From a virus: a stretch of 64,000 bases of DNA. The stretch spans positions 3,138 through 67,137 of the IMG/VR virus record IMGVR_UViG_3300037307_000543. One strand, 5' to 3'. Positions 1,333 through 20,025 of the stretch are shown here, piece after piece. Made by a program: the position numbers and the translations under genes. Positions within the stretch are counted from its first letter, which is position 1; every line of letters begins with the position of its first letter. The notes below the pieces were generated by a model. The model was not told where the DNA came from. It ran no database searches and worked only from the letters and a program-made list of their open reading frames with translations.

Positions 1333-2667
1333 TTAGGACATATTCGGATCTGCGGTTGACTGGAGCACTACGAACGCCTTCTCCTGCTCGCAGATTCCAC
1401 CAACACGCGCCGAGGCGCGGAAAGCGGTCATGTTCTGCAAGAAGTAAACGTGTCGGCTCATTTCCACGGAGATCGTCTTGCGCTCTCCAATGAAATAATG
1501 TTTCCAGTCGCCAAGAATCACGTCGCCAGTCGTGCCGAGATCACTCGTGCGGTAGTCCGACATCACGATAGGAATGCCTGCGGCGAATCCGGCAACGCCT
1601 TCGCCAAAGTTATTGTACCCGTAACCTACGTCGATGACGGGTCGCCCGTTTTCGTCAACTTCCTTGCGGAGGTTGTTGAAAACCGCCTTCTTCATAAACC
1701 ACACCGCGTTCGCATCGAACATGGGCGGCAATAGACTGTGCATGTTGAGACAGTCGCGCCATCCTACCCGGTTCGCGCTGATGCGGTCACAGGTGATAAT
1801 GTTGGGAGTATTCAACAGGCCCAGCGGCTGTGAGCCGCCAAGACCGGTGATGAACGACTTGTCGGTGCCATACCAGTACGCTCCCTGGAAGAGCTGTACA
1901 AGCAAGTTGCCGATGTTGATCGCACTGTCAGCAAGAAGCTGATCAGTAATCGGGGTCGATGCAGAGACCTCGTAGCACTTCAGGGTAAGGAACTCGAACT
2001 CCGCCGTGGTGTTCGGCTTTACCCCGCCTTCAGAGGTCCACCGAAGCTCCACGTTACCGAAGAAGTTTTCGCTTCCCTGAGTAAGGTCCTGCTTGAGTTT
2101 AGGCCACTGAATCTCGTCAGTAGCCATAGGCCACACCTGAGCACGCGGCCATACGATGGTCCCCGGAGGAGCGAACTGGAGCATCGCATAGCGGATATCT
2201 TCAGGGACAAAGAGGCCCGCAGAGCTGTCGTCCGCCGACCGCATCGCGGTCGTCATGTCGGTGAGCGTATCCTTCGTGACAATCTGAACGCTATCGCCCT
2301 TTGTCACGAAACGGATTGTCTGACCAGAACGCGCCGCGCCGCGAAGTTTCGCCGCAAACTCGATCATCGGCTCCGAAGCGGTCTCGAAAAATCCTGACTG
2401 ACGCCGCAGCCCCTTCGTGCTGATGTTGTACATCCCAGCATTGACGATAGCTCCCTCGGGAAGCCGATACTGGTCCTCTCCAACCTGCTGGAGAGTACCG
2501 TCGTCAACGACCCCTTTGACACTATGAATCGTTTGAGGAACCGCCTTCTGAAGCTCGGTGATCTTGGTGTTGATGTCCTCAAGCATCCCTTTGGTCTTGA
2601 TCTCAACCTGATCACCGACCGTCTTAGCGAGCATTTCCTCGAACTTTTTCTTGGTAACCTCGTCCAT
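1333..2667 (-). CDS. HK97-fold major capsid protein with N-terminal delta (scaffold) domain
   Basis: AGLFVPEDI, WTSEGGVKP, QPLGLLN, ILGDWKHYFIGER, FRASARVGG motifs; about 130-aa N-terminal extension ending FVTK-G/IVTK-D. Confidence 0.93.
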   Translation of the reverse strand: MDEVTKKKFEEMLAKTVGDQVEIKTKGMLEDINTKITELQKAVPQTIHSVKGVVDDGTLQQVGEDQYRLPEGAIVNAGMYNISTKGLRRQSGFFETASEPMIEFAAKLRGAARSGQTIRFVTKGDSVQIVTKDTLTDMTTAMRSADDSSAGLFVPEDIRYAMLQFAPPGTIVWPRAQVWPMATDEIQWPKLKQDLTQGSENFFGNVELRWTSEGGVKPNTTAEFEFLTLKCYEVSASTPITDQLLADSAINIGNLLVQLFQGAYWYGTDKSFITGLGGSQPLGLLNTPNIITCDRISANRVGWRDCLNMHSLLPPMFDANAVWFMKKAVFNNLRKEVDENGRPVIDVGYGYNNFGEGVAGFAAGIPIVMSDYRTSDLGTTGDVILGDWKHYFIGERKTISVEMSRHVYFLQNMTAFRASARVGGICEQEKAFVVLQSTADPNMS

Positions 2668-2686: not shown

Positions 2687-4444
2687 TTATGGGCTCGAAG
2701 GCCCGATTTGGTCCAACTGCTCGATCAAGGGCCTTACTGCCTCAGAAGCAGCCTCAAAGCCCTTCTCGACCATGGGCTTAATGTCATCTTCGGTTAGGTC
2801 AGCAAGAAAACCGAGTCCTTTACCGTAGATGCCCTCATTCTTCTTATGCTCTATCCACTCGACGAGTTCATCGTCGGGAATTTCATCAAGGACTTCCTGA
2901 ACAAGCTGCACAGGACTCTTCTCGACGATCTCCCTCTTTTTCATCTGCTTCTTTACCCAGGTTTTGATCTGATCCGAATCCCACGAATCAGAATCAAACT
3001 CACAGGAAACAAGCTTCTGACAAGTAGTACAGAAGGCTCCATCGATACCCGTATATTCCTTAAACGTCAAATTTACGACGTTATGGTTGTCATGGTCTCC
3101 ATGATCCAGAAGGACAAAGTGCTTGTACGTTTCTTCTTCCTCTTCAGGCTCCTCCTCCTCTGTTTCCTCCGCTTCCTCTGGAGCTTGGCTCTTGAAAGGA
3201 CATTTCTCTTCCTGGCAAGCTTCGATTTCTTCAGGCGTCACTTCCTGATCACAATAAATGCAATATCGAAGCTCCTCTTCAGGTTCCTCTTCAGGTTCCT
3301 CTTCAGAAGCCATTTCATCAGAAATCTCCTCCGGCTCTTCTTCCTCCTCCGGAGCCTCCTCATCAATTTCTTCTTCACTAACTTCCTCTTCCGGAATCTC
3401 TTCTCCTTCGGGCTCCTCCTCGTATTCTTCTTCAGGAGCCTCTTCCTCGTACTCTTCCTCGGGAGCTTCCTCTTGTGGAGCTGTTCCGTTTGCCGCAGCT
3501 TCTCGCTGAGCAACAGAAGCCTCTCTCTGCGCCACAGCAGCCTCTCTTTGAGCTACTTCGACTTCCCTTTGGCGCAACCCTTCATCCGGTATTGCAGTCT
3601 CCATTGGTGCCTCCTCTGTAGCTGGCTGCTGCATCATTTCCATGAGTTGCTCTAAGTCCTGATCTCCAGTCTCCGGCGGAACTTCGCCCTCTGTTTCGGC
3701 CCCAGGTTCTTGAGAGTCAGGAACTGGAGGAACTTCGGGACCTCCAGCCACGTCTCCTTCAGCGACAGGAGTCTGAGAGACTCCTTCAGGGCCGCTCATC
3801 ATGGACATATCGGTCGGAGTATAATCGGTCATCCAGAGCGCATTCGGATCTTCTCCCTCTTCAAGCTTAATCGGAACACCTATATCGGCAGTATTCATCG
3901 TAGTTGTACGATTGATCCTACCCGTAAGCTGGCTTTCGATTGCCTTGATCTCAAGACCGGGATAGATTCCCTTTTTGGCTACAAGGTTGTGAACCCAAAG
4001 TATCTTGAGAAGACGATTCAGTGAGTCTTCGGTAACGGCAAGTTCAAACTGAGCGGCTTGATCACCGCTTCTCTTTCTCTGAACCTGAGCTTCTGCGGCC
4101 TCCGTAGCAATTGCTATTCCCTGAATCACCGATTGAGCAACGGTGTTGAGTTTTCCGATAAGCTCAAGTTTTCGCTCCTGATCGGTTTCCGCTTGAAGCT
4201 GATTTGCCGCATTGACGTAATCAATGATGATTTTCTTCGTGGCTTCTTTGCCTTGACTGTACCATTGGCTTGCAGCGGGCCAATACATCGCCCCCTGTTG
4301 AGCATTCGGCGTAGAGACGGTTGTCGCTACAGTTGACGGCTCGCCAGTAGGAGAGTTGGTTGTACTGTAAGGAATCCCAATGCCATAGCCGCTGTCTTTC
4401 GTTACGATTTTCTTAGCGGCTTTCTTCTTGGTTTTCTTCTTCAT
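2687..4444 (-). CDS. Highly acidic head-module protein (internal/scaffold-like)
   Basis: Long Glu/Pro low-complexity tract, QREAAVA repeats and a Cys4 module; lies between the protease and capsid genes. Confidence 0.6.
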   Translation of the reverse strand: MKKKTKKKAAKKIVTKDSGYGIGIPYSTTNSPTGEPSTVATTVSTPNAQQGAMYWPAASQWYSQGKEATKKIIIDYVNAANQLQAETDQERKLELIGKLNTVAQSVIQGIAIATEAAEAQVQRKRSGDQAAQFELAVTEDSLNRLLKILWVHNLVAKKGIYPGLEIKAIESQLTGRINRTTTMNTADIGVPIKLEEGEDPNALWMTDYTPTDMSMMSGPEGVSQTPVAEGDVAGGPEVPPVPDSQEPGAETEGEVPPETGDQDLEQLMEMMQQPATEEAPMETAIPDEGLRQREVEVAQREAAVAQREASVAQREAAANGTAPQEEAPEEEYEEEAPEEEYEEEPEGEEIPEEEVSEEEIDEEAPEEEEEPEEISDEMASEEEPEEEPEEELRYCIYCDQEVTPEEIEACQEEKCPFKSQAPEEAEETEEEEPEEEEETYKHFVLLDHGDHDNHNVVNLTFKEYTGIDGAFCTTCQKLVSCEFDSDSWDSDQIKTWVKKQMKKREIVEKSPVQLVQEVLDEIPDDELVEWIEHKKNEGIYGKGLGFLADLTEDDIKPMVEKGFEAASEAVRPLIEQLDQIGPSSP

Positions 4445-4782
4445 CGGGGTTCCTCCTCTTTGTTCTTCTTATCTTCCAATTCGGGTTCCCCTACAATCTT
4501 GTCCAAATACGTATATGGGCAATCCGGGTCTTGACACTGAGCGATCCTTTCTTCAGTAGCCTTTCTCTTGCATTTCGGACAAATACTTCCGATTTGCTCT
4601 TTGGAGAACAGGCCCGCGGACCTATCGTTCCCGGCGCTCATGTATCCAGAAGTCGTTGATGTGTCAATGGATTTTTCTTCAACATTAACAGAGTCGCCTT
4701 TCATCCATATTGGTGCGAACAGCCAAAAATCTGGAACCAACGAAACAAACGGTTTATCTTTTACAGCATCAGAAAAACTCAT
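4441..4782 (-). CDS. Small Cys4 zinc-ribbon-like protein
   Basis: Likely start at ATG 4782 (ATGA overlap with the upstream stop); CPKC...CQDPDCPY. Confidence 0.6.
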   Translation of the reverse strand: MSFSDAVKDKPFVSLVPDFWLFAPIWMKGDSVNVEEKSIDTSTTSGYMSAGNDRSAGLFSKEQIGSICPKCKRKATEERIAQCQDPDCPYTYLDKIVGEPELEDKKNKEEEPR

Positions 4783-7700: not shown

Positions 7701-10700
7701 TTGAATCAGTTCCGCTGCAACAACCTCTCCCATCGCAAACTTGTTTATTGCGGAAAGCCGCCTCACTTGAGCAATTTCTCCAGTTCCCTTACCGCCACGT
7801 ATGATTTCTTTTGCCGCGGTTTTGGAAATATCTACGGCTCGAAAGAACTTATTGGGAATATATCTCGGTCTCTTCCAAAATATCGCGGCAAGAGTAGCCG
7901 CTCCAGCAAGAGTGGCGCCAGCAAGAAGGATCTTCGCAACCGCCCTATCTTCATCACTTACATTATCGCTTCTGTACTTTTTCCACGCGTCTGCAACGGC
8001 CTTATGTTTCTGGACTTCCTCATTAAACTTACTCAGACTCGCATCCATTATTCCATGAGCGTCTTTTGCGTTCACAGGAGATTGTTCTACAACTCCACTT
8101 GACGTTCTTGCTCTGTTGTAACTACTCCTAAGAGCATTCGCCATATCTTCCCGTTCTTTATCCATATACTTCACAGGATCGTCCATATAAAGAATCCAGT
8201 CCGGTTTTCCTAATCTGTAAGCATCTGCCCTGATCTTTTCTTTAACTTTCGCCTCGCTCATGCCCGGATTCTCGGCCTTGTACTTCTCTGTAAGTCTCTG
8301 CACAGCTTGAGGAGCTTTCTTGGGCATTCTCCCAGCCCCAGCACGAACTCCACCATGACTAGCGACAAACTTGGTTGCCCTTTTTGGAGCCGTTGTCGTT
8401 ACACCTGTGCCTGCCTTAACAAACTCTCCACCCCTCTCAGATCCCGCTGGAGCCCGAGGATGTTCGCGAGGATCAAATTCTTCCTTGGTCATCTCCTTGC
8501 CAACAAAATCAGCAAAGCCTTTCTCCAGCTTCTTTTTGGCCTCACTTCCTGCAACTACGGCTCCACCAACCGCGCCAGTTGCAATAACAGCCTTTGGAAG
8601 CGGACGCATTTTTTCAAGCTCTTCCGGTTTGATCCACTTATCAGAACCGGCGGGAAGCACTACGTCAGCAAATTTCTTGCTAGACAAAAGATCTTTAGGG
8701 TAGAGAAGGGCGCTTTCTTTTTTGAACTTGCCCCTAAACGCTTCTCCACCATAATTCTTGTACAATTCAGCAACCGTTCCGGCACAAATCACTCTATCGT
8801 CCTTCACAATGGCAGTAAAAAGAGAGCCTGTTATCGGGTCTGCCAATCTATCAACAACGAGATCTGGTCTTTCGCGAGCCATAGCCAGCGTCGTTGGTTG
8901 TTCTTGATCAAAAGTAAACCGAATTCCGCTCTGTTTCTCGTTTAGTGCATCTTCAATAATCCTCTCCCCCATTGCTTTCTTATCGCTCAGGCTCATTACC
9001 TCCTTTTTTGGTCTGAGAATAAGTGATATTGCGTCTGGTGTGGATCTTGGATAATCTTTGACTGAAAGAACCAGCCTGCCTTTCTCTCCTGACGTGGCTT
9101 GGGCAACCACAAACTTGCCCATGTGTTGACCAACAATCCCCCTACCAGCAAGAAAATCATCAAAGTCACTAACATATTTAGCTCTGTCTTTTACATCATT
9201 CCAAAAGAGTTTTTTCTGTTTATTCGTCTTAAATTTCAGATCCCCAACTCTATCCAATTCTCTACTCACAATTGTCTCAATTTTTTCTCCTTCATAACTC
9301 GTTAAGATTTCGTCGATATACTTCTTGTTCTCCATGTACTTCTTTATATTGAGATCGTTAACGACTACTCGCTTCCCTTCCTGTCCGAACATGTTCACAA
9401 AAAGATCTCTCGCTCTTTTGTGACGAACTCCCCCAGACATATAAGCCTCAACCATCTTTTTGTGCATATTTTGATCATACGTTCCAACAATCATGCTAGA
9501 ATGAGAATATGATCCCCCATTAACCGCCTTTGCAAAAACCTCTCTCAATCTCCGCCTCGCTGTCTCATCTCCTTTCGCAACGTGTTTGTACGTATCTCCA
9601 ATCAGATCTTCAATTCCATCATAAGGTCTGCTTCCCCAAATAAAAACATCCCCCGGTTGAGCTTGATTTCTCCAAGCAGCTTTGGCCTCCGGAGTCAGCC
9701 CATCCCACGGAACCATCTTTTTCGCCGCATCTGAATAGATAGTCTTTATTAGCCTTCCACCAACCCGTGCCGTAGCAAAAATCAATGGAGCAGAAGCTAT
9801 CCCTAAGCCAACAAGAGCTGTCTTTCCCTTATTCGCCCTTATCCACCGCACAACACCCTTCTTCTCTTCTTCACTCAGTTCTCTCGACTTACCCGGCTGA
9901 ACAACAGATGAACTCACAGTTCTGTATTTTACCGCCTTCGGCTTCTCCACCTCCTTCACCTTCTTTGGACTCATGCTCTGAGTAACAGACTTCGGTCCTA
10001 CCGTAGAAGGCTTCGCTGCTTCTCCCTTTGGACGAAACTTTCCATCGGCATGTCTGGGATGCTCCGCTTCCTCGAACTGCGCTTCGGTCATACCCTTCCC
10101 GATGAAAGCAGCAAAGCCTTTCTCTTCTACAAGATCCTTTATCTCATCGGTTATTTGTTGATACTGGTTGCTAAGATCCTTGTACTCTGGTATCTTATCG
10201 GCGCCTACTTCAACACCCTTCTCAAGCGCATCAGCAATAATATCAAGCGTGTCTGTAAGCGTTTGGACCTGATTTTCTGTATCAATCCCCTTTCGTCTTA
10301 TTCTGTCGGCCACTCCATACATCCCAGCCACAATCCAGTCCTTAAGTTTTTCCTTCGCGGCCTGAACCATGCCTTGACCGATCTGCGTTCTCGTCAGAAA
10401 GAGATAGCCAGCGGCGGCTCCGCCAAGCCTCAGTCCCCACTTCTTTGCCCACTCCGCCCATGAATCCTTGTCTTTCACCTGTTGAAGTGAAGACAAAATC
10501 TCTTGTTGGTTGCGAAGTATAGCATCCATCTGAGCTTGAGGAACGTTCACCGCGACGTTTGAGGTTCCGCCCATAGCGGTTATAGACGGTCCACCGGTCA
10601 ATGAGTGCCACAACTGAGGCCCATACTGAGAGGCATAAACAAGGCCCGCTCCCTTCGTCACGAAGCCGTAGAAGCTTTCTTCTTTCTCCTTTTCTTTGAT

Positions 10701-11294
10701 CCACTCTTTAACGATCATCTCAATTTTGCTCTTGTTGCCCTTCGCGTCAAACATCTTGATCACGACACCAGCAACCTGATTCCCTTTGTTCAAGTTATCG
10801 ACAAGCGCCCTTCTATTGGAGGGAATCGCAAGAGCAGAGATCTCGACAAGCTCCACTTCGTGATAGAGCTTCTTCACTCTTCTCCCGTTGGCGGTCTTGA
10901 GAGCGTCTGAAGGAATCTTGTTCAGGCTTGGATTCTCTTCGACCACCACGGGAACAAATCCGGCGGAGAACCCCCTGAGACAGCCTTCATGAAAAAGCGT
11001 CAGAAGCTCGTCGCCAGTCTGAGTATTGGCAAGCTGGAACTTGGCCCATATCCCGTCGTCTCTGAACTGCATATCAACACACTTTCCAATGGGCCTGGAT
11101 TTGTGCTGATGAGCTTCGATGAAGACAGGATAGGACATGTAGACCCCGATGTGCTTCTCGAACGCTCCAGGCATAACGATTTCGCCGTCCCTATCGACTT
11201 CAGGACGGGAGACGTACCCGGAGACCGTTCTTTGTTCAAGGTCTACGTCGGGAAGAAAATCATCTTCCCATTTGAAAGGTTTGGTAGTGAACAA
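4779..11294 (-). CDS. HK97-family prohead protease fused to a roughly 2000-aa multi-module extension
   Basis: N-terminal VSGYVS..VDRDGE, AHQH..PIGK, LRGFSAGF, ELVEISAL (His/Ser/Glu of the U35/S78 protease); downstream permuted papain-like motifs and HEWGH. Confidence 0.88.
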   Translation of the reverse strand: MFTTKPFKWEDDFLPDVDLEQRTVSGYVSRPEVDRDGEIVMPGAFEKHIGVYMSYPVFIEAHQHKSRPIGKCVDMQFRDDGIWAKFQLANTQTGDELLTLFHEGCLRGFSAGFVPVVVEENPSLNKIPSDALKTANGRRVKKLYHEVELVEISALAIPSNRRALVDNLNKGNQVAGVVIKMFDAKGNKSKIEMIVKEWIKEKEKEESFYGFVTKGAGLVYASQYGPQLWHSLTGGPSITAMGGTSNVAVNVPQAQMDAILRNQQEILSSLQQVKDKDSWAEWAKKWGLRLGGAAAGYLFLTRTQIGQGMVQAAKEKLKDWIVAGMYGVADRIRRKGIDTENQVQTLTDTLDIIADALEKGVEVGADKIPEYKDLSNQYQQITDEIKDLVEEKGFAAFIGKGMTEAQFEEAEHPRHADGKFRPKGEAAKPSTVGPKSVTQSMSPKKVKEVEKPKAVKYRTVSSSVVQPGKSRELSEEEKKGVVRWIRANKGKTALVGLGIASAPLIFATARVGGRLIKTIYSDAAKKMVPWDGLTPEAKAAWRNQAQPGDVFIWGSRPYDGIEDLIGDTYKHVAKGDETARRRLREVFAKAVNGGSYSHSSMIVGTYDQNMHKKMVEAYMSGGVRHKRARDLFVNMFGQEGKRVVVNDLNIKKYMENKKYIDEILTSYEGEKIETIVSRELDRVGDLKFKTNKQKKLFWNDVKDRAKYVSDFDDFLAGRGIVGQHMGKFVVAQATSGEKGRLVLSVKDYPRSTPDAISLILRPKKEVMSLSDKKAMGERIIEDALNEKQSGIRFTFDQEQPTTLAMARERPDLVVDRLADPITGSLFTAIVKDDRVICAGTVAELYKNYGGEAFRGKFKKESALLYPKDLLSSKKFADVVLPAGSDKWIKPEELEKMRPLPKAVIATGAVGGAVVAGSEAKKKLEKGFADFVGKEMTKEEFDPREHPRAPAGSERGGEFVKAGTGVTTTAPKRATKFVASHGGVRAGAGRMPKKAPQAVQRLTEKYKAENPGMSEAKVKEKIRADAYRLGKPDWILYMDDPVKYMDKEREDMANALRSSYNRARTSSGVVEQSPVNAKDAHGIMDASLSKFNEEVQKHKAVADAWKKYRSDNVSDEDRAVAKILLAGATLAGAATLAAIFWKRPRYIPNKFFRAVDISKTAAKEIIRGGKGTGEIAQVRRLSAINKFAMGEVVAAELIQSAKIGPFTSWGTIDAKQVNFLNRWIASAVAKLKGKTGGKAIRAYRLGPTLRGYGLEGTIYGPGKGAFVNTKVKQDLMNWRPRQGSLDGDTGIVFVGRNGKVQVEDLLTSAWERAYWNKDGKLQRKILELVPKESTDPLLPFEWRGRRIVLKPDLADTITKAERHAVEISNDVTPEMLKNKKLVTAKAIEAKTNAWLEGHGIVIRKSNGDLEFTRKHGIIPDYIYTPYTPDEINEYDKALGRLDPNKPDRIPSDWGALGDFFMEKVIPPFSVRAWAGIGATTGAAGTAFYFHKDIMNFVKEVTSSKKEKEAISTALRKEEGKAEKQEKPNLAEWTKYERALAEKERRRAEAYTAQGFQQDIQERLVSKLVGEHLRREMEGAVPLYRSLLATIERYLPNLALAALQEEFARRGFKAHDPRVTAILLDLMKDDKKLHQVTAQALVEYIKNPKHKKDIENLAEAGKILQEEIKKQETKRGDDEWYGEYDAQIREGTKKGFVEFITKGMNEEEKPLQGRAPSADDLATAMAEVFIDDLVDCSDACKIAIENALPGHTRFEAVLDVLNDVYSALRNQVKLVKNGPGEEDIVKKEMSKEEFVESEHPRHRDGKFRDKNSVQEGVASDVIMSDKTKKIVGGVVVIGGVALSVGAYKILRNSNIFARAGGNTSKAQKIAIGVLSGSAIGKNATTTAQSILDIKVFNEIKNFNIKTYRRRFPEKAKVIDYINNPLGFQKDLMRQFGHLESPGPVKIVIRDEVDYGGSLDSALGNQIAFIGHKNTLNINLVNYNFPEAVKVIDSMGGPKELLMHEWGHALTLLNTPGARQILKKTEADFVKAGLELKGKKFSVRYIHPSTGIDTKSSGIISDVKVVDFDYGEFGMSRFPQLEGQFGKLSDDYVRVVENQKGFIQKRIVITTKEDNGEVAEFELITLPGLFGQIFNGIPAEEVFAVEGIKNSRDIYRLASQSEWCSVLSERGIKL

Positions 11295-12323
11295 TTAATC
11301 CGAACTCCACTTAAGACCAGATCTAAGATATCTTGCGAGTTCTGCCGCCCTTGTAAGCTCCTCTTTCAAAACCTTATCCTTTATTGGTCTCTTCAGTCTG
11401 TCTTCAAGAATATCCAATGATTTTGATGTATTCAAAAGATCCTTTCTTTTTTGAAGAGGAAGAAGACCCGTTTTGCCCATATTCTTCACCCTTTGAGAAA
11501 GCATCAAAGCCATATCCTTTACGGCAGGACCTGCGGCTTTCTGGATGATTTGAGAAGAGGAAAGACGTTTTTTCCTCCATTGAGTGGGATCAAAATAAGA
11601 AATGTCCCGCTCTGAATCTCTCTTGGCCTTCCTCGGACTATTCTGTTTGGAAAACAACAAGTCACGAGCCTCTCGTTCCGCTTTTACAATCTCTGTTGGA
11701 ATACGTTCTTGATCCAGCGCCTCTCCAAGGCCATGATAAGACGCAACATCATCGTGCAACTTTTTCATTTTTTTTGCAGCCTTTGTATACCCCCTGGAGA
11801 TGGTAAAGCCTCCTTTCTCAACAATCATCGAATCGTCAAGTTCCTTGTATCGTTGACGCAGTTTCCGACTAATAACGTCAGAAATAGACCCAACCCTTTT
11901 TTCCTTTTCTGGAGAGAGTCCGAAACTGGAAAGCGGATTATTAAATTGAGAAAACTTGTCACCAAGAGTTTCTTTCATTCTGTCAACCGCGCTGATGATA
12001 ATCCGCTTGTCCTTGGGAGAGGTTTTTTTGTATTGTTTCAAAAACTCTCCTGCACCAGAAAGAGGAGAAGCGCTCGCTCTTTTCGCCTCTTGCAAAACCT
12101 CTTTGATCGCTCGTGGAGCTTTCTCAACAATCATCGAATCGTCAAGTTCTTTGGCCTCAATTCCCCACTCCTGCCCTCGCTCGGCCAGCACCTCATCCAG
12201 AGTCTTCCTGGCAGGCTCAACGGAGAATTCCTTTTCAATCAGTTCTTCAGGCTCCATGTTCTTGCACGTTCCGCCCTGAAGATCCATCGTCACAAAGCTT
12301 GCTTTTCCTCTTTTGTCAGACAT
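11295..12323 (-). CDS. Basic head-module protein with two KELDDSMIVEK repeats
   Basis: Likely start at ATG 12323 (AGGAGG upstream); 29-bp identical DNA repeat at 11815-11843 and 12121-12149. Confidence 0.7.
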   Translation of the reverse strand: MSDKRGKASFVTMDLQGGTCKNMEPEELIEKEFSVEPARKTLDEVLAERGQEWGIEAKELDDSMIVEKAPRAIKEVLQEAKRASASPLSGAGEFLKQYKKTSPKDKRIIISAVDRMKETLGDKFSQFNNPLSSFGLSPEKEKRVGSISDVISRKLRQRYKELDDSMIVEKGGFTISRGYTKAAKKMKKLHDDVASYHGLGEALDQERIPTEIVKAEREARDLLFSKQNSPRKAKRDSERDISYFDPTQWRKKRLSSSQIIQKAAGPAVKDMALMLSQRVKNMGKTGLLPLQKRKDLLNTSKSLDILEDRLKRPIKDKVLKEELTRAAELARYLRSGLKWSSD

Positions 12324-12334
12324 TGGAAGCCCTC

Positions 12335-14740
12335 CTAAGATTTCTCCGCCAGGACCGGTCTTCTCACGCACCGACAGTTCGGATGAAGCGTTGCCGATTC
12401 TTTGTACACCTTTCCGGTTCGATAATCCTTCAAAATGGTCCCGTGATTCGCTCTACAATTCTTCTCCGGATTTGAGTCATTACATACCCGCTCATCAAGC
12501 GCAGTCCACAAGACCGCTTTCTCGACAACGATTCTTCCCGCGTCCTTGTTTACTTTCTCAAACGACGCATCAGATCCCACATCCAATGCGCCGGAAAGCT
12601 CAGTTCGAGCAATCATAGACGCCCGCGCGGACCCCATATCAGCAAATTTCTCGCGAATGAGGTCCGCGACATCTTCTACATCCATGCCTTCCTTGAGCCC
12701 CGTCTTAATGATCTTCGTGATGGTTTTCTTAATCGTCCTACTTCTCAGCGTTGCCGACTGGTCGAGAAATCTACCGGCAGCATTGTATGTGGCCTCGTCC
12801 GGAGAAATGCCAAGCATTCCGCCAAGACCTTTCTCCACCAATCTCAGCCCGAAATTAAATCCAATGTCAACCGCCTTCATGATAAACAGACGAGACGATT
12901 CTTTATATTCGTATTCAAACTCATTCAAATCAAAGACTTCATCAGGTTCCTTAGTAACAATACCATTCGCGTTTTTCTTGACAATTTCTGATATCTGTAG
13001 TCCTTTGCCAACGAGAAACTTCTCAGCGACGGGTTTATAGATATTTTCAATAGCCTCAATCGCAGGAAGCATCTCTTCATAGCATTTGTAAACCACTCTC
13101 TCGTCTTCAGGCAGAATCTCTTCAATATATTCATCAATCCCTCTCGTAATAAGCTTCATCAATCCATCTTGAGAAGAAAGCTTTCCAAGATTCTGTGTTG
13201 CAGTCTGGATAGTTGGATTTGCTCGCATAAAAGCGGTCAGTCCTCCACGATTGCCACGAGCCGCATTGATAAGCGTAGAGAGATTGGGCGAGTTTCCCCT
13301 CATGGATTCTTTCAAGAGCCCCATAAGGTCGCCCTCCGGCCTCCCTCCAGTCATTCCAAACTGTCCTTGAAGCGCTGGGGCGCCTCCGCCCATCATGCCA
13401 CCTTGTGCGGCCATAGATGCACCGGCAGCAGCCGCAATGCTTTCATCCCATACCTTGTCCGCCTCTGAGTTGATTCCTCGAATCGGCTGTCCATTCATCC
13501 AAGGAACGTAGCACAGCGGAGAATCGAACGGCTTTTGGCCCCTTCTCAAGCGTATTTCATTGATTGTGGTCAATCCCATAGTCAATTCGCCCTGGTTTTT
13601 AGCAAGTTCCCATTCGTCATCTTTCGGATGAGCCGACTCATAGGTAAAAATAAGGCTCTTCGTGCTCTTAAACTGAGATCTGAGCTGAAGATTTATGCTT
13701 CCGGCAAGCACCTTCAATCGAGGAAGAACCGAATGGTCCACAAAGGTCTTCTCGGCCGCAATATCGGACGCCTTAGATGAAGCCCCCATAAGCCCAAGCA
13801 TAACCTCTGGAACCCCATACGCGGCCAAGATATTATCTTTGGTCCATTCACTCAAAGCCATGAACTCAAAGTCCTTCGCGGACATTCCCACTTGCTCGAT
13901 CTTTGCTTCTCCGGTAAGGACCGCGGGCTTAAACTGTCGCCCTGGCCCGCGATGTTTTGCGTTCCACCCTTCCGAAAGCCGTTCGGCTTGAGCCTTTGGA
14001 ATGGGGTGAGCAGGAACAATCACGAAATCCGGCCTTGCGTTATTCTGAAAAAAATCCTTCTCATAGACCTGAAGATAGAGATCCAAATCAGTGACGTGCG
14101 CCAGGGCTTGAATGGGGGTAAAGGGAAGCACCGGATTCATCGGATTCGGATAGTGGAAATAGACAACATCTTCGTACGGATACTCTCTTCTAAGCTGCTT
14201 CTGATAAGGAGATGCGAACACGAACTTATCAATGAGCCGATCAGTAGAGTTTCCCATCATGATCGTTACCAATTCATTCGGATTCATCAAATAAAGCTCT
14301 CTCGGGGCACCGATTGCATCTCTGATGATAAGCCAAAAAGCACATCCACACAGATCAAGATACATCTGCGTAGCTGCGAAAAACTGCTCTCCGTCAAAGT
14401 ACTTATTTGGCCTTCTCAGAAGCTCCAGGAGGGGGTGATGAAGAATTCGGTCAAACTCTTCATCGTTCGGCTGGCCAACCTCTTTGTACAGATAGAAGGG
14501 AACAGAGGCTACTTTGTTTTTGATCAGATTCACACAGGGATAAACCCAAGTACGATACTTGAGAAGTGCCTGTTGAGCATTAACTGTAGGGTTCAGAGTT
14601 CCAGGATTGGCATTGGAAACAGTAGAAAGCGTTCTCGAATTAAGCTCTTCCCACCCTTTTATTACCACGACGCCTGGATACTCATCAAAAAAATCTCGGT
14701 CTTTGGAAAAGGCGCTTCTCAGGCGATCAAGGAATCCCAT
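12335..14740 (-). CDS. HK97-family portal protein fused to a MuF/SPP1-gp7-like head morphogenesis domain
   Basis: Portal motifs VYPCVNLIKNKVASVP, DVVYFHYPNP, KDFEFMAL, ILAAYGVP; C-terminal ARTELSGA, WTALDERVC, HPNCRC. Confidence 0.9.
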   Translation of the reverse strand: MGFLDRLRSAFSKDRDFFDEYPGVVVIKGWEELNSRTLSTVSNANPGTLNPTVNAQQALLKYRTWVYPCVNLIKNKVASVPFYLYKEVGQPNDEEFDRILHHPLLELLRRPNKYFDGEQFFAATQMYLDLCGCAFWLIIRDAIGAPRELYLMNPNELVTIMMGNSTDRLIDKFVFASPYQKQLRREYPYEDVVYFHYPNPMNPVLPFTPIQALAHVTDLDLYLQVYEKDFFQNNARPDFVIVPAHPIPKAQAERLSEGWNAKHRGPGRQFKPAVLTGEAKIEQVGMSAKDFEFMALSEWTKDNILAAYGVPEVMLGLMGASSKASDIAAEKTFVDHSVLPRLKVLAGSINLQLRSQFKSTKSLIFTYESAHPKDDEWELAKNQGELTMGLTTINEIRLRRGQKPFDSPLCYVPWMNGQPIRGINSEADKVWDESIAAAAGASMAAQGGMMGGGAPALQGQFGMTGGRPEGDLMGLLKESMRGNSPNLSTLINAARGNRGGLTAFMRANPTIQTATQNLGKLSSQDGLMKLITRGIDEYIEEILPEDERVVYKCYEEMLPAIEAIENIYKPVAEKFLVGKGLQISEIVKKNANGIVTKEPDEVFDLNEFEYEYKESSRLFIMKAVDIGFNFGLRLVEKGLGGMLGISPDEATYNAAGRFLDQSATLRSRTIKKTITKIIKTGLKEGMDVEDVADLIREKFADMGSARASMIARTELSGALDVGSDASFEKVNKDAGRIVVEKAVLWTALDERVCNDSNPEKNCRANHGTILKDYRTGKVYKESATLHPNCRCVRRPVLAEKS

Positions 14741-15240
14741 TACTTGTTCCCAAACTCGTCTTTAAGAATCTTCTCAAGGTTGTCATTGTCGTCATCAAGC
14801 TTAAAAGCTGCCTTCTGGAGCAACTCTTCACGCTTCTTGTTCTTTTCGACAATCTTCGTCATCCATGAATCCTGACGAACCAAGCTATTCACAATCTTCT
14901 CTCTAAACGAAGAAAACCCAACAGCAAGATGCCCCACTTCCTCGTCTGGAGGGAGTACTTCGGGCTCTTTCGGACCAAAATCTTCTTCATGAGACACGAC
15001 AGTTTCTCCTTTAATCGTTTTCTCAGACGTTTTCTCGCCCTCTTCGGTGAGTTCGGTCACTACGATGTCTTGAATCTCTTTACAGTGAACAATGACCCCT
15101 CCGGATGGAGTATCGAACGACTCCACTCCGGATTTAGACTCCCGTATCCGTGCTAGAGCGGCTTCGACTTCGCTTTGCTCGCTCATCAGCAAGGACACGG
15201 GAGTATGATTCACGTACTTGAAGGTGAGTCTAAAACTCAC
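14740..15240 (-). CDS. Hypothetical head-module protein
   Basis: Translationally coupled to the portal gene; contains IVEK. Confidence 0.65.
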   Translation of the reverse strand: MSFRLTFKYVNHTPVSLLMSEQSEVEAALARIRESKSGVESFDTPSGGVIVHCKEIQDIVVTELTEEGEKTSEKTIKGETVVSHEEDFGPKEPEVLPPDEEVGHLAVGFSSFREKIVNSLVRQDSWMTKIVEKNKKREELLQKAAFKLDDDNDNLEKILKDEFGNK

Positions 15241-16437
15241 TTACTTCTTGACCTTTCCTTTTGGAACTCTCACGACCGAGGAGCACTTGAAGACGAAATC
15301 CTCTTCGTCAGCACCTTTCTCCTTACGAGTTGCTCTATAGACACCATAGCCGCCAGCGCCAAGAGCAGGAACCGCAGCAATGGCAAGACTCTTCTTGGGA
15401 TTATCCTTAATCCACTGAATTGCGGCTTCAGTTGCAGTTGGAGTGATCTTCCCAAACTGCTTCGAGAGTGCGCGACGAGTCTTGTAGGCAGGGATTCTCC
15501 CACTCTCTCTGCCCCTCAGCCACTCGGACTTCTTCGGAGCAGCGGCCTGAGCATCGCTGATTTCTCGGCTTTTGGTCCCGTAAATGTCGCCCGCAGCGGC
15601 CTTCTCAACGAAATCGGCAAAGCCTTTCTCCTTCCGTCTACTCAAAGCATAGACTCCGCCGCCGATAAGACCAGCCGCACCAAGCCCAGCCGCGCCCGTT
15701 CTGTACGGATGAGCAGCAGCATAACGACCAACAGCTTTTCCGCCTTCGGCCACTTTGCTCGCCGCAGCACGCACCTTCGGCTCGACATAACCCCGTGCCT
15801 TTTGGTACGCGCTTACAATACCCTCTTTGGCCTCACGAGTTTTTCTGCCGACAGGAGTCTCGCCAGGAGTCACTTTGACATCCCCGCCCTCCATCGAAAA
15901 TGTCCGACGAGTAAGATCCTCCTTGACAGGATTCTTCATCTTTTCGACCAAGAGGCTGTCATCAACCTCTTTTGCGACCATCCACTTCGAGTCAGACTCG
16001 CGAAGAGCAAGATGATCCGCTACCGACTTCTCGATAGTGTCGAACGAGCCGTCGATATCGTAGCGAGAAAACGAGTTCTGATCAACCACGAAGCCCTTCT
16101 CAACCATCTGGTTGTAGGACTCCCAACCCTTCTCGATCTCGTTTTTCTCTCCACCGAGATTCTGTGCGTCGGAAACGTAGGTTGCCTCAATGTCCTTTTT
16201 CGCCTCACCAGCTACTTCGGACAGATCATCCGCCATTGTGGTGCCGGGACCACCGGGCTTGTTCTCTCCCGGCTTGATGTTCGCACCACTTCTGTCAACT
16301 CCGGCAGAATCAACTCCGGCAGAATCAGTCACGTCCCGACCAGGATCAGCGGGAAGCGTATCCTCTGCATGACCATCGCCCTTGAAGACACTGAATTCCT
16401 CAAGGAACCCCTTCTGTACCAAGAATTCGTTGCTCAT
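15241..16437 (-). CDS. Head-module polyprotein-like protein with repeated (V/I)EK-G motifs and glycine-rich hydrophobic segments
   Basis: LVQKG, IEKG, MVEKG, KEVDDSLLVEK, EKGFADFVEKA; GAAGLGAAGLIGGG and AVPALGAGGYG segments. Confidence 0.7.
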   Translation of the reverse strand: MSNEFLVQKGFLEEFSVFKGDGHAEDTLPADPGRDVTDSAGVDSAGVDRSGANIKPGENKPGGPGTTMADDLSEVAGEAKKDIEATYVSDAQNLGGEKNEIEKGWESYNQMVEKGFVVDQNSFSRYDIDGSFDTIEKSVADHLALRESDSKWMVAKEVDDSLLVEKMKNPVKEDLTRRTFSMEGGDVKVTPGETPVGRKTREAKEGIVSAYQKARGYVEPKVRAAASKVAEGGKAVGRYAAAHPYRTGAAGLGAAGLIGGGVYALSRRKEKGFADFVEKAAAGDIYGTKSREISDAQAAAPKKSEWLRGRESGRIPAYKTRRALSKQFGKITPTATEAAIQWIKDNPKKSLAIAAVPALGAGGYGVYRATRKEKGADEEDFVFKCSSVVRVPKGKVKK

Positions 16438-16526
16438 TGTCTTTACCTCGCTTTTTCCTTCAAGCAGCCTCTATCGGACCCTCTCCTGAAGTCTCATGCC
16501 TGCCTTAACGGCCCAGCACGATGTTC

Positions 16527-18812
16527 CTAATTCTTCTTTCTCGATCTTTTGCCCATAGCTTCAATTCCGCCATAGTAATAAAGCTTCTTCAAGCCCTTTC
16601 CCACTGGATATTCGTCGTCATCTCCACTCAAACCATAATACAGACCCGCTCCACCAAGAAGAGCCGCACCGCCAAGACCATATTTCATGCCCCTAGAAAG
16701 ATCCTCTTGCGGCTTAGTAGCTTTAGGCAAACTCGGCTTAACCACCGAAGGCGGCTCAAAACGTTCCGCAGAACGAGACGGCGAGGGCGCTGACCTAACA
16801 GGAGAAGTCGGCTTATTCGCCTCTCTCAACTTTCTCGCGTGTTCCGATTGGCGAAAAGCAATCTCTTCTGCTTCATCAAAAACTCCACCGCGGCCTACCC
16901 GAGTTCCCGCCGCACCAGTGCCGGTAACGGCTTCGGCCCCAACAGGAATCTTTGGTTTTCTAGGCTTAAAAATATTCGTCACTTTTCTCAATGCTTGAGG
17001 CCACTTCTCAACAAGTTCATTGGCTACTGTTTCATAACGCGAAACACCCTTAATCATAATAAAGTCTTCACCTTCTATCGGCCTAATGAAGTTTGCCGCT
17101 TCATTCCGAACATATACCTTCCTGTGACCAACAGATCCGGCCCGCTCTCTAGTTCCAGCCGCTCGTTTATAAAGCTCCTGTACCGGTTCCCACTCTCGCG
17201 CTTCCTTTAAGCTCTTTTTATCTACCTTTTTGATGTTAAGTCGCTTTAGCCCTCTCCCACCTAAACCTCCCAAAAGAGCCCCGCTTGCTCCACCCGCCAA
17301 CGCTCCTCCAATAGCCCGAACAGCTTTTCTATCCTGTTCCTTTGTCGAAACATATCCACCGGCTCCTCCCAAGGCGGCCCCTACTCCAGCACCAATTAAG
17401 GCTCCTTTGATCCCCTTTTCCACTATTATAGAATCATCAAGTTCTTTCGCCTTCGTCGGCTTCAGATTCAACTTCGCGTTTCCGTGTCCGGTAGCAGTCT
17501 CCAATATATTCCTCTTAGCAAGAGCGATCCTCTTCGTCTTTGCCTCTGGCATATACGCTTTTTCCTTTTTCTTGTTCTGCTCTTTTATCGCAGCCTTCGG
17601 GGCTCCTTTCGCAGCTCCTTTGGTAAGACCCGTAGCAATTGTTTCAAATCCTATACCCCCCGAGGCCGAGCCTCTCCCGGCTTCCCCAAGGGAACTTCTT
17701 ACTACCTCAAATAGGATTCCTTTCTCTACGATCAAGGAATCATCAAGCTCTTTGACTACAAATTCCTTCTTCTTCAAATACGGCTGTCGCCCCTTTTTAT
17801 ATGCAGCAAGCGCATCGTCAAGTTTCTTTCTATACGCTGCAAGCTCTTCAATATTCGGTTTAGGAATCCTTTTTCCTGACTCATAAAGAGAATCAGCTAT
17901 CAGTTCTTTCGCCGTTTTATCAAAAATTCCTTTTTCTACAATGAGAGAGTCATCGAGTTCTTTAACAACCTGAAGTTTTCTATTCAAGGCCGCTTCTGCC
18001 GCATCATTCGCTCTCCTCATCTTCTCAACATTGGTCAAGGTCCTTTTAATGTTAGCCAATCTTTTAGAGCTATCGTCAAGAGTGGCATTAATCTCTCTCA
18101 TATGAGCAGCATAGCGATCAGCATAGTTAACGACTTCCTTTGCTAAATTAGCCTGTGCCCTTCCGGCACTTGAAATTACCGATCCAGCGCCTCCCACTGA
18201 TGCTCCCAAAGATCCGCCTATAAGAGCGCCCATTGCGGCCCTTTTCAAACGATGTTCTTTTTGTTTCGCGGTAGCCGCTGCGGTTCCAGCCCCACCAACA
18301 GCACCAATTCCGGCACCAATCGATGCAGCTTTTACAGCTCCTTTCTCGACGATGAGAGAGTCATCGAGTTCTTTGGCAACAGCCGCATCTCTCTCCAAAT
18401 ACTTCTTCCCAAGATGTCCAGCCGCGATGCCGCCTCCAACCATGAGTCCATATTTGCCCAATTTTTTCCAATTGATAGGTTTATGTCCAAGGGCGCGTTC
18501 ATAATGTTCTACTGAAGCCTTTGACACGAAGCTTTCTCCTAAAGTGGATTCAGAAACTCGTGTCCCTAAACTAGAATCATTCTCCCCCTTTACTTCAAAA
18601 CCATCCTCTCCTATATCCTTATATACAGGACGCACCCCAAGATCATCCGCGACCTCCTGAAGGCGCGCTTCAAGACTCGTCTCTCTCTTCGCTGGATCGC
18701 GAGTCGAACCTTCGAGAATAGACTCTTTATCAAACTCTTGAACAACAAGTGAAGGCTTCTGATCTACCTTCACCTCGTCCATTACGGCAAATGTGCTTTT
18801 TTCTCGCGGCAT
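16527..18812 (-). CDS. Head-module polyprotein with four KELDDS(L/I)IVEKG repeats and glycine-zipper segments
   Basis: Repeats at about 17413-17447, 17718-17753, 17928-17963 and 18339-18374. Confidence 0.75.
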   Translation of the reverse strand: MPREKSTFAVMDEVKVDQKPSLVVQEFDKESILEGSTRDPAKRETSLEARLQEVADDLGVRPVYKDIGEDGFEVKGENDSSLGTRVSESTLGESFVSKASVEHYERALGHKPINWKKLGKYGLMVGGGIAAGHLGKKYLERDAAVAKELDDSLIVEKGAVKAASIGAGIGAVGGAGTAAATAKQKEHRLKRAAMGALIGGSLGASVGGAGSVISSAGRAQANLAKEVVNYADRYAAHMREINATLDDSSKRLANIKRTLTNVEKMRRANDAAEAALNRKLQVVKELDDSLIVEKGIFDKTAKELIADSLYESGKRIPKPNIEELAAYRKKLDDALAAYKKGRQPYLKKKEFVVKELDDSLIVEKGILFEVVRSSLGEAGRGSASGGIGFETIATGLTKGAAKGAPKAAIKEQNKKKEKAYMPEAKTKRIALAKRNILETATGHGNAKLNLKPTKAKELDDSIIVEKGIKGALIGAGVGAALGGAGGYVSTKEQDRKAVRAIGGALAGGASGALLGGLGGRGLKRLNIKKVDKKSLKEAREWEPVQELYKRAAGTRERAGSVGHRKVYVRNEAANFIRPIEGEDFIMIKGVSRYETVANELVEKWPQALRKVTNIFKPRKPKIPVGAEAVTGTGAAGTRVGRGGVFDEAEEIAFRQSEHARKLREANKPTSPVRSAPSPSRSAERFEPPSVVKPSLPKATKPQEDLSRGMKYGLGGAALLGGAGLYYGLSGDDDEYPVGKGLKKLYYYGGIEAMGKRSRKKN

Positions 18813-18866: not shown

Positions 18867-19160
18867 TTATTCTACGACTTCGACCGGTGTGCCAAGAGTT
18901 TCAGAAACTACTTCTTCAGTGGCCTGCTTCACGGTCTTCTCTATGAACTCATCGAAGGCGAGAAGCTCATCAAGCAACTCTTCTGTTGCGTCTTCTGGCG
19001 CTTTCTTAATCACTGAATACGCAGAAGCAAAGGCTCGTCCTTCGTCTTGATGCTTCTTGTAAGCGCTATTCCAAACATGAACCCACATTCGAGCTTTTTT
19101 TGCTGGAAGTTTCTGGACATTCTCCGGAAGAGAGGAAATATCATCAGGGTTATATGGCAT
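18867..19160 (-). CDS. ChaB-family protein
   Basis: MPYNPDDISSLPENVQKLP..ARMWVHVWNSAY..DEGRAFASAYSVIK fits the ChaB pattern. Confidence 0.8.
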   Translation of the reverse strand: MPYNPDDISSLPENVQKLPAKKARMWVHVWNSAYKKHQDEGRAFASAYSVIKKAPEDATEELLDELLAFDEFIEKTVKQATEEVVSETLGTPVEVVE

Positions 19161-20025
19161 CTGAGTTTCTCCTTCTTATGTTTTTAGCCCTTCCTCTAAA
19201 GTTTTCTTTCTTTATAGCGTCTTCAAAATACATGCCTCTAGCAATTCTATTCCGCAAGGTGCTATAGCTAAACCCAAAAAATCTTGCCCATTGTGCCAAG
19301 GTTTTCTTCATTCCATTGTATTCAATCCAGACATTATCTTTAGCATCATTAACTCCAAATATAGTATCAACGTCCTTAAAACTTCTTTTATCAATAGCTA
19401 TATCAAATGGAACTCCTATATTAATTCTATACCAAAGATTATGATATTTAATTCCATAAAACTCTGCCCACTGTGACAAAGTTCTCTTTTCTCCATTATG
19501 ATCTACAACAATATTTCTTCTAGTATTATTGCACTGAATTTTCCTATCTACAAATCTTACATTAGTAGGTTCATAGTTTCCATCATTATTTATTCTATCT
19601 ATAGTTAATCCTTTAGTATATCCAATAGAAATAGCATCCTCAATAAAGCTCTCTATTGTTTTCCATCGTTCACAAACTATTATACCCCTAGCGCCGTAAT
19701 CTCTATAATGATAATTATCACTATTAAAACATCTATTCATCATATTGTTCCACATTGGATATAATTCGTGATAAGAAAGGCCATGTTTTATCTTATTGTC
19801 TTTTCTTTTAGATACTTCTAATTTATAACATCCACATGACTTGGTACTTCCAGAAGTCAATTTACTAGGAATAACTTCTACTATGTTTCCACATTCACAA
19901 ATACACTTCACATAACTCACATTCCATCCATTTTTACGTTTCTTATATAAGAATTCAACAGGAATCAATCTTCCATATTTCTTATTCAATTCTATTTTAG
20001 ATTTTCTAATAGATTTGTAACTCAT
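19150..20025 (-). CDS. Free-standing HNH-family homing-endonuclease-like protein (paralog 1)
   Basis: YGRL, CICECG, KSCGC, YGARGIIVCERW, TIDRINNDGNYEPTN; visibly AT-rich. Confidence 0.8.
   Translation of the reverse strand: MSYKSIRKSKIELNKKYGRLIPVEFLYKKRKNGWNVSYVKCICECGNIVEVIPSKLTSGSTKSCGCYKLEVSKRKDNKIKHGLSYHELYPMWNNMMNRCFNSDNYHYRDYGARGIIVCERWKTIESFIEDAISIGYTKGLTIDRINNDGNYEPTNVRFVDRKIQCNNTRRNIVVDHNGEKRTLSQWAEFYGIKYHNLWYRINIGVPFDIAIDKRSFKDVDTIFGVNDAKDNVWIEYNGMKKTLAQWARFFGFSYSTLRNRIARGMYFEDAIKKENFRGRAKNIRRRNSDAI

Follow-up and report, generated by a model that had tools for sequence, protein, structure and literature searches.

Repeated copies of a long conserved motif in candidate head-internal polyproteins of an uncultured tailed phage with an HK97-type prohead protease

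The viral contig IMGVR_UViG_3300037307_000543 from IMG/VR (67.9 kb; completeness estimated at 71% by CheckV), of which a 64-kb stretch, here called the window, was analyzed, encodes three proteins, p761, p398 and p358, that share the twelve-residue motif K-E-L-D-D-S-x-I-V-E-K-G. Gene context and conservation make it probable that these are polyproteins with which an uncultured tailed phage fills its head, either as internal cargo or for ejection, and we put the chances at about even that each motif is cut at a specific K/G bond, after its second lysine. In a six-frame scan of the window, the motif occurs exactly seven times, in the three genes around the portal gene (four copies in p761, one diverged copy in p398 and two in p358), always on the minus strand, which holds every long gene of the window; no copy was found in any other frame or on the other strand. 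The genes and the motif copies are as follows.

16527..18812, minus strand: p761, open reading frame (ORF) of 761 residues, candidate head-internal polyprotein
18339..18374, minus strand: p761 motif copy 1, KELDDSLIVEKG, residues 147-158
17928..17963, minus strand: p761 motif copy 2, KELDDSLIVEKG, residues 284-295
17718..17753, minus strand: p761 motif copy 3, KELDDSLIVEKG, residues 354-365
17412..17447, minus strand: p761 motif copy 4, KELDDSIIVEKG, residues 456-467
15241..16437, minus strand: p398, ORF, second candidate cargo protein
15937..15972, minus strand: p398 motif copy, diverged, KEVDDSLLVEKM
11295..12323, minus strand: p358, ORF, third candidate cargo protein, 342 residues after reassignment of the start, in which two basic modules come after an acidic first segment
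12117..12152, minus strand: p358 motif copy 1, KELDDSMIVEKA
11811..11846, minus strand: p358 motif copy 2, KELDDSMIVEKG

The 36-nucleotide copies in p761 differ from one another at 3-9 positions, and any two of them are separated by 3-7 synonymous codon differences and at most one non-synonymous difference, with unrelated codons on their flanks. Since the codon differences are nearly all synonymous and the flanking codons are unrelated, the repeat has been kept as a peptide and does not reflect recent duplication of DNA. An earlier note on this DNA, made from the letters alone, had read the combination of a near-invariant spacer and varying codons as selection on the peptide; the synonymous differences bear this out, as does the conservation of the motif across homologues whose identity elsewhere is just 25-30% or so.

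The three motif-bearing genes lie in the first half of a head-assembly module. In the order of transcription, part of the terminase gene is followed by the genes for an HNH endonuclease, a 97-residue protein, p761, p398, a 166-residue protein, a portal-MuF fusion, p358, a 2171-residue protein, an acidic, scaffold-like protein of 585 residues and the major capsid protein, which has the HK97 fold (Pfam PF05065, 1e-35). By its position and by matches of the equivalent genes in relatives to PF06150, the 97-residue protein is read as ChaB-like, whereas p761, p398, p358 and the 166-residue protein matched no family in Pfam or PHROGs. Two neighbors are of particular relevance.

12335..14740, minus strand: portal-MuF fusion protein, 801 residues (Pfam PF04860, 2.7e-57, and PF04233, 1.4e-6; PHROG portal families)
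10797..11234, minus strand: N-terminal S78 (HK97-type) prohead serine protease domain of the 2171-residue protein, residues 21-166 (Pfam PF04586, 1.1e-8)

This setting, beside the portal and the prohead protease, fits packaging of the three proteins into the head and their proteolytic release.

The association holds in relatives. The contig L006, with a portal 51% identical to that of the window, encodes seven motif copies in proteins located before and after its own portal, and a protein from JGI data that is 32% identical to p761 over 31% of its length contains three. A profile built from 17 motif copies, searched against 1.84 billion representative proteins at E <= 0.001, matched just 13 proteins, each with two to six matched stretches. 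Absence of the spacer from homologues, which the earlier note had named as a refutation of its proposal, is therefore not what is observed, since the motif is present in L006, in the JGI protein and in the 13 profile matches. Wherever neighboring genes can be read (the window, the relatives L006, L012 and L013, and the contig encoding the profile match P0004), the motif-bearing genes adjoin the portal-MuF gene, the S78 protease gene, or both, and the protease near them is fused or adjacent to a giant protein. The clade with the motif is rare. An exact degenerate DNA pattern of the motif retrieved from IMG/VR only the record of the window itself, and a relaxed pattern added only the L006 contig; a word-indexed homologue search with p761 returned p761 itself and P0002 only; a portal-alignment scan of metagenome contigs yielded just two short contigs (L009 and L010), of no use for gene context; and no cultured phage matched the portal in a tblastn search at more than about 28% identity, so that a close cultured relative is lacking.

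A second shared feature lies at the N-termini. The consensus M-x-R-G-x3-F-x2-M opens 10 of the 13 profile-matched proteins in full, P0003 lacks only the final methionine, and P0007 and P0013 keep only the tail M-x-x-F. In the four phages (window, L006, L012, L013), this tag was confined to the N-terminal ends of head proteins that contain the motif; in the window it is represented by two sequences.

18780..18812, minus strand: p761 tag, MPREKSTFAVM, belonging to the family consensus
12285..12323, minus strand: p358 tag, MSDKRGKASFVTM

Translation of p358 most likely begins at the ATG at 12323, 7 nucleotides downstream of an AGGAGG Shine-Dalgarno sequence, and not at the GTG at 12371. No conserved x-E site follows the tag, and the first motif lies 40-170 residues downstream of it. 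The tag is a candidate capsid-targeting signal, and a better one than the acidic DDS part of the motif, for which the earlier note had suggested that role. A fuller form, M-x-R-G-(K/N/S)-x-x-F-x-(T/V)-M, often followed by x-G-F, heads most of the motif-bearing head proteins; in relatives it is located at 6906-6940 and 12393-12430 of L006, at 10001-10035, 11997-12030 and 17213-17245 of L012, and at 2488-2530 of L013. The tag also opens a 74-residue protein encoded directly before the protease gene of L012.

The motifs divide the proteins into modules with a pronounced polarity of charge. The segment that precedes the first motif is always acidic, with an isoelectric point (pI) of 4.3-6.1, and the later segments are basic (pI 8.1-10.3), the sole exception being the second segment of an 858-residue protein of L006 (pI 5.5); the order is that of a propeptide and a mature internal protein, to which it may be compared. 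In p761, an acidic N-terminal segment (residues 1-157, pI 5.2) is followed by four basic modules of 137, 70, 102 and 295 residues (pI 9.1-10.1). The N-terminal part of p398 is acidic (pI 4.3), and its C-terminal part is basic (pI 10.1) and contains one glycine-rich hydrophobic helix; homologues of p398 are a 647-residue protein of L006, a 408-residue protein of L012 and P0013. The segments enclosed by two motifs measure 137, 70 and 102 residues in p761 and 102 residues in p358, so that the predicted products would be small proteins, with a last piece of 295 residues in p761, and not the short peptides that had been envisaged in the earlier note. The modules also appear to be units of evolutionary change: P0004 and P0006 have their ends in common and differ in the number of motif-bounded modules (six and five). 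An AlphaFold2 model of p761, with a mean predicted local distance difference test (pLDDT) score of 43, served for secondary-structure context only; all four motifs fall in non-helical, low-confidence stretches at the ends of helices or between them, a placement that is compatible with accessible linkers.

All four glycine-rich strings that the earlier note had described as glycine zippers between spacers do occur in p761, although two of them lie in the 295-residue segment past the last motif, and the label is fair for their composition, but their scores lie below the gathering thresholds of the Pfam Gly-zipper families: in a relaxed Pfam run, the Glycine zipper 2TM models PF13488, PF13441 and PF05433 gave at best 14.8-15 bits (E 0.023) against cut-offs of 25-28.9. 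The likeness to these families consists of small-xxx-small runs with basic flanks, and the families comprise bacterial outer-membrane lipoproteins and not, as the candidates here would be, virion proteins. A feature search of the protein Atlas returned only unnamed viral clusters with scores below 0.8, and the nearest structural neighbors of the Atlas model were Gly-zipper proteins, at a weak similarity (TM-score <=0.5). A second repeated delimiter, K-G-(W/Y/F)-E-x-Y-N-x-x-(I/V)-x-K-G-F, occurs once in p398 (window 16093-16140, residues 100-115), at least five times in the 647-residue protein of L006 (6903-9346), and once in a free-standing glycine-zipper protein of 142 residues in the same relative.

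Which bond within the motif might be cut was examined by counting residues over 40 tabulated motif matches, 39 of which are real copies. The two lysines, each present in 38 of 40 matches, are more constant than any other position, and the second is the sole invariant column in the alignment of 17 copies. The residue before the second lysine varies freely (E, S, G, F, T, D, N or V), and the one after it is small (G in 26 matches, S in 6, A in 3); the first lysine equals the second in conservation and frequently has V-A or V-V before it. Cleavage after the glutamate, by analogy with the I-V-E type of rule known from T4, was considered and set aside because the glutamate position is variable while the next lysine is constant. 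The S78 protease is encoded in the head module together with its proposed substrates, in the next gene but one, and it keeps the same company in L006, L012 and L013. In the protease domains of all four phages, a histidine and a serine align with H65 and S114 of HK97 gp4, which we take to be its catalytic pair, and by this alignment the prohead protease looks active. HK97 gp4, the archetype of S78, cuts the capsid protein gp5 between K103 and S104 (PMC10275583), in the sequence T-F-N-K/S. Because of this precedent, the aligned histidine and serine, and the pattern of conservation, the cut would be made after the second lysine, by the phage's own prohead protease and in the prohead. A search of PDB sequences with the protease region gave no match, the capsid protein gave weak HK97-fold matches only, and a predicted complex of residues 1-215 of the 2171-residue protein with a 40-residue motif peptide (score 0.00, pLDDT of the partner 40) speaks neither for nor against binding.

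The end of the motif recurs as a short core, hydrophobic-(V/I)-x-K-(G/A), which is found 22 times in the 6.2 thousand residues of the head proteins, against 3.0 +/- 1.7 in shuffled sequences, and 5 times in the 12.8 thousand residues of the rest of the phage. Individual sites lie both within and outside the three motif-bearing proteins.

16093..16107, minus strand: MVEKG in p398, inside KG-W-E-S-Y-N-x-M-V-E-K-G
15598..15612, minus strand: FVEKA in p398, within EKGFADFVEKA
14839..14853, minus strand: IVEKN in the 166-residue protein
14654..14668, minus strand: VVIKG near the N-terminus of the portal, aligned with IVQKG in L006 and LTVKG in L012
12827..12841, minus strand: LVEKG at the portal/MuF junction; LVEKG, MVQKG, LIEKG and MVAKS stand in the same alignment column block in the four phages
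10650..10664, minus strand: FVTKG directly past the protease domain, the predicted release point of the protease from the giant protein
2759..2773, minus strand: MVEKG near the C-terminus of the acidic, scaffold-like 585-residue protein
2269..2310, minus strand: FVTKG (residue 120) and IVTKD (residue 129), the only two hydrophobic-V-x-K sites of the capsid protein, just upstream of the N-arm

The comparison at the portal N-terminus covers three phages, the portal of L013 being cut off at that end. The conserved positions of the portal and junction sites suggest release of the MuF part by cleavage once assembly is complete. L006 encodes its protease as an ORF of its own, whose last residues before the stop codon are ...LIGK, exactly at the point where the fused protein of the window has FVTK-G. 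In the alignment of capsid proteins, the core sites (AVAKS, residue 121, in L006) lie just upstream of DD(S/A)SAG, which aligns with DADSAG, the start of the mature N-arm, in HK97; this is where the maturation site between the delta-domain and the N-arm is expected, the position of the capsid cut itself being only predicted. Taken by its distribution in these sequences, the short core is a putative code across the whole head module.

On the basis of these data, we infer cleavage, a scissile bond, packaging, ejection and any membrane action of the three proteins as follows. Each protein would enter the assembling prohead by means of the shared N-terminal tag and its acidic first segment, which would act like the capsid-targeting sequence of T4 and the propeptides of giant phages (PMC3012670, PMC10052503); there, the S78 protease at the N-terminus of the neighboring 2171-residue protein would act on it. 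Each copy of the motif would be cut after the second lysine, according to a rule that can be written as hydrophobic-V/I-x-K, then G, S or A, and the same short rule would govern trimming of the capsid protein and the scaffold-like protein, of the portal at its N-terminus and at the MuF junction, and of the tether of the protease itself. The expected products are one acidic pro-piece per protein and some nine basic pieces, altogether twelve fragments of roughly 70-295 residues, several of which would have one or two glycine-zipper-like hydrophobic helices. The basic fragments would stay with the DNA and would probably be ejected into the host. The K-E-L-D-D-S half, present in the cargo proteins only, is probably an additional recognition or docking element for substrates that are otherwise disordered. 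Both release by cleavage and a role of the products in ejection or at a membrane are live proposals.

Several observations weigh against this scheme. A conserved stretch of 12-14 residues far exceeds what any characterized prohead-protease site needs, and the candidate sites in the capsid protein and the portal are devoid of the KELDDS part, so that the long motif may have a different or additional job in docking, ordered ejection or oligomerization. A cut after the second lysine leaves the acidic motif on the C-terminus of the basic fragments, which calls for an explanation. For the scissile bond, the argument draws on conservation and on a single enzyme, HK97 gp4, as the analogue. The hydrophobicity of the glycine-zipper segments is only marginal (Kyte-Doolittle values of 1.2-1.5 over 19 residues), and their Pfam scores are sub-threshold. 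Tail genes were sought in the remaining 3.9 kb of the contig as an indication of the virion type, but only sugar-metabolism genes were found there, and the members of the family are known from metagenomes alone.

The main alternative reading takes the motif as an uncleaved, multivalent docking peptide. Each copy would bind the scaffold-like protein, the portal, MuF or the inside of the capsid shell and thereby tether the protein at several points within the head or order its release, the likeness to the short core being coincidental or secondary. In favor of this reading, no known prohead-protease site approaches the motif in length or conservation, its KELDDS half is missing at the candidate capsid-protein and portal sites, and a precedent for short shell-binding peptides exists in HK97, where the strand just before the cleavage site docks on the P-domain sheet of the capsid (PMC10275583). 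Against it stand the lysines, which are the best-conserved residues of the motif and the second of which has a small residue after it, like the K/S site of HK97; the end of a gene in L006, located exactly behind such a lysine; and the gain and loss of modules as independent units. We therefore regard docking without cleavage as unlikely, while noting that docking and cutting are not mutually exclusive; the KELDDS half might be an exosite for disordered substrates, a docking strand on the interior of the shell, or a signal for ordered exit.

A more elaborate variant of the cleavage scheme would treat the 12-mer as a bipartite load-and-cut cassette reserved for capsid cargo: both lysines would be cut, the acidic decapeptide E-L-D-D-S-M-I-V-E-K would be excised, and a dozen glycine-zipper peptides would be freed, stored with the DNA and, upon ejection, inserted into the host envelope to open or line the path of DNA entry. 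We consider this version distinctly doubtful. It is improbable, moreover, that the motif is cut by another enzyme, be it the HExxH zincin or a papain-like module of the 2171-residue protein or a host protease acting after ejection. The giant proteins of the window and of L012 do contain the sequences HEWGH and HEYAH, respectively, and Iyer et al. 2017 proposed that polyvalent proteins are processed by such metallopeptidase domains, either within the head or once they have been injected (PMC5512222). However, HExxH was not found in the sequenced parts of the motif-bearing relatives L006 (22 kb) and L013 (10 kb), whereas S78 is present in all four phages, and a lysine at P1 with a small residue at P1' fits the S78 precedent (PMC10275583). 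Finally, the likeness to leader-repeat bacteriocin or RiPP (ribosomally synthesized and post-translationally modified peptide) precursors drawn in the earlier note, in which a machinery for maturation and export would recognize the spacers and secreted products would result, is a formal one of conserved spacers repeated between variable glycine-rich cores, joined by a single sub-threshold Microcin V match in a relative (E 0.29), and can be dismissed with near certainty, given segments of 70-295 residues with no signal peptide or double-glycine leader, genes located between those of the terminase and the capsid protein and always accompanied by the portal and the prohead protease, and a Pfam and PHROG scan of the neighbors in which every recognizable family belongs to a head gene (portal, MuF, S78 protease, capsid protein and HNH only) and no modifying enzyme, C39 peptidase, ABC exporter or other maturation or export gene was found nearby.

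The closest known counterpart of the proposed cleavage is HK97 gp4 (MEROPS S78), which belongs to the same Pfam protease family and shares the aligned histidine and serine. The sites T-F-N-K/S in HK97 and I-V-E-K/G here would have in common a lysine at P1 (proposed in the present case), a small residue at P1' and a hydrophobic residue at P3 (PMC10275583), and the candidate capsid site occupies the same place relative to the N-arm as the delta-domain site of HK97 gp5. The two systems differ in that HK97 has one known class of substrate, comprising the protease and the capsid protein, and is not known to carry internal cargo, whereas the protease described here is fused to a multi-module protein of 2171 residues, and the putative cargo sites are embedded in a motif of 12-14 residues that is repeated up to six times per protein. 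In T4 and SPN3US, capsid-targeting sequences and multiple cuts by gp245 in the long propeptides of ejection proteins, respectively, have been described (PMC3012670, PMC10052503). With the systems of T4 gp21 (L/I-x-E), phiKZ gp175 and SPN3US gp245 (A-x-E), the phages studied here would share basic head-internal proteins from which an N-terminal targeting or pro-region is removed by the prohead protease, with multiple cuts in long propeptides (PMC3012670, PMC10052503). Those proteases, however, are S77-like, with glutamate at P1 and three-residue sites, in contrast to S78 here; their cuts remove N-terminal propeptides and do not dice a protein into modules that are retained; and none of these systems shows sequence similarity to the tag or the motif. 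Internal proteins of the T4 type have a conserved N-terminal peptide of about 10 residues on otherwise unrelated head-internal proteins, matched here by the tag, but the comparison is one of likeness in working and not of membership.

The polyvalent proteins catalogued by Iyer et al. 2017 (PMC5512222) are delivered from the head, composed of multiple modules, associated with MuF and peptidase domains, and proposed to be processed into parts. By that description the neighboring 2171-residue protein fits the class (PMC5512222), whereas the three motif-bearing proteins have no recognizable enzymatic domains. The passages on this topic in PMC5512222 describe neither a conserved cut motif between modules nor processing driven by S78. 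What is already established is the proteolytic maturation of head-internal proteins in T4, phiKZ and SPN3US, together with the catalogue of polyvalent head-delivered proteins (PMC5512222). The new elements, as far as they can be read from sequence, are the N-terminal tag that these proteins have in common, the cargo-specific motif of 12-14 residues with as many as six copies in one protein, the putative dicing into many small modules that would be retained, and the association with an S78 protease that is itself part of a giant multi-module protein.

The loading of proteins into phage heads and the roles of these proteins in entry are understood in a few models, namely T4, P22, T7 and the phiKZ group. 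The present lineage is unusually legible, with a tag, a long motif between modules, a protease of the best-studied (HK97) family, and small cargo modules of glycine-zipper or basic character. Should the motif prove to be a cut-and-load signal, sequence alone would predict the mature virion proteome for an entire uncultured clade, a simple co-expression assay would be at hand for the specificity of S78, so far poorly defined, and a possible tag for packaging foreign proteins into HK97-type heads would be available. Membrane-active peptides that are primed by maturation are found in non-enveloped animal viruses, as adenovirus protein VI and the nodavirus gamma peptide; if the released modules were membrane-active, the same principle would extend to phages.

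Some minor features of the module and its surroundings may be added. The 2171-residue protein (window 4779-11294) is composed of modules bounded by K-G-F-x-x-F-(V/I)-x-K-(G/E), several of which open with E-E-F-x3-E-H-P-R-x-x-D-G-K-F, as does a separate 911-residue protein of L006, and its HEWGH zincin sequence lies near residue 2001. A zinc-ribbon-like pattern of four cysteines, C-x2-C-x12-C-x4-C-P-(F/L/Y), is shared by the acidic scaffold-like proteins with several giant proteins, which have it at their C-termini; it is located within 2687-4444 of the window (residues 395-425 and 470-480 of the 585-residue protein), at the C-terminus of L006 14661-17396, within L006 17353-19542, and at the C-terminus of L013 3935-9244. 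The gene inside the head module that resembles HNH homing endonucleases (window 19150-20025; PHROG 374, 3e-62) has similar-looking counterparts at 16252-16950 of L012 and 1784-2440 of L013, where they directly follow the portal gene; this shifted place among relatives would fit a mobile insertion. Past the head genes, the end of the contig (positions 1-1416 of contig G000, L014) holds genes that resemble those for a nucleotide-sugar epimerase and an aminotransferase, and a porin-like gene of the phage suggests a host with an outer membrane.

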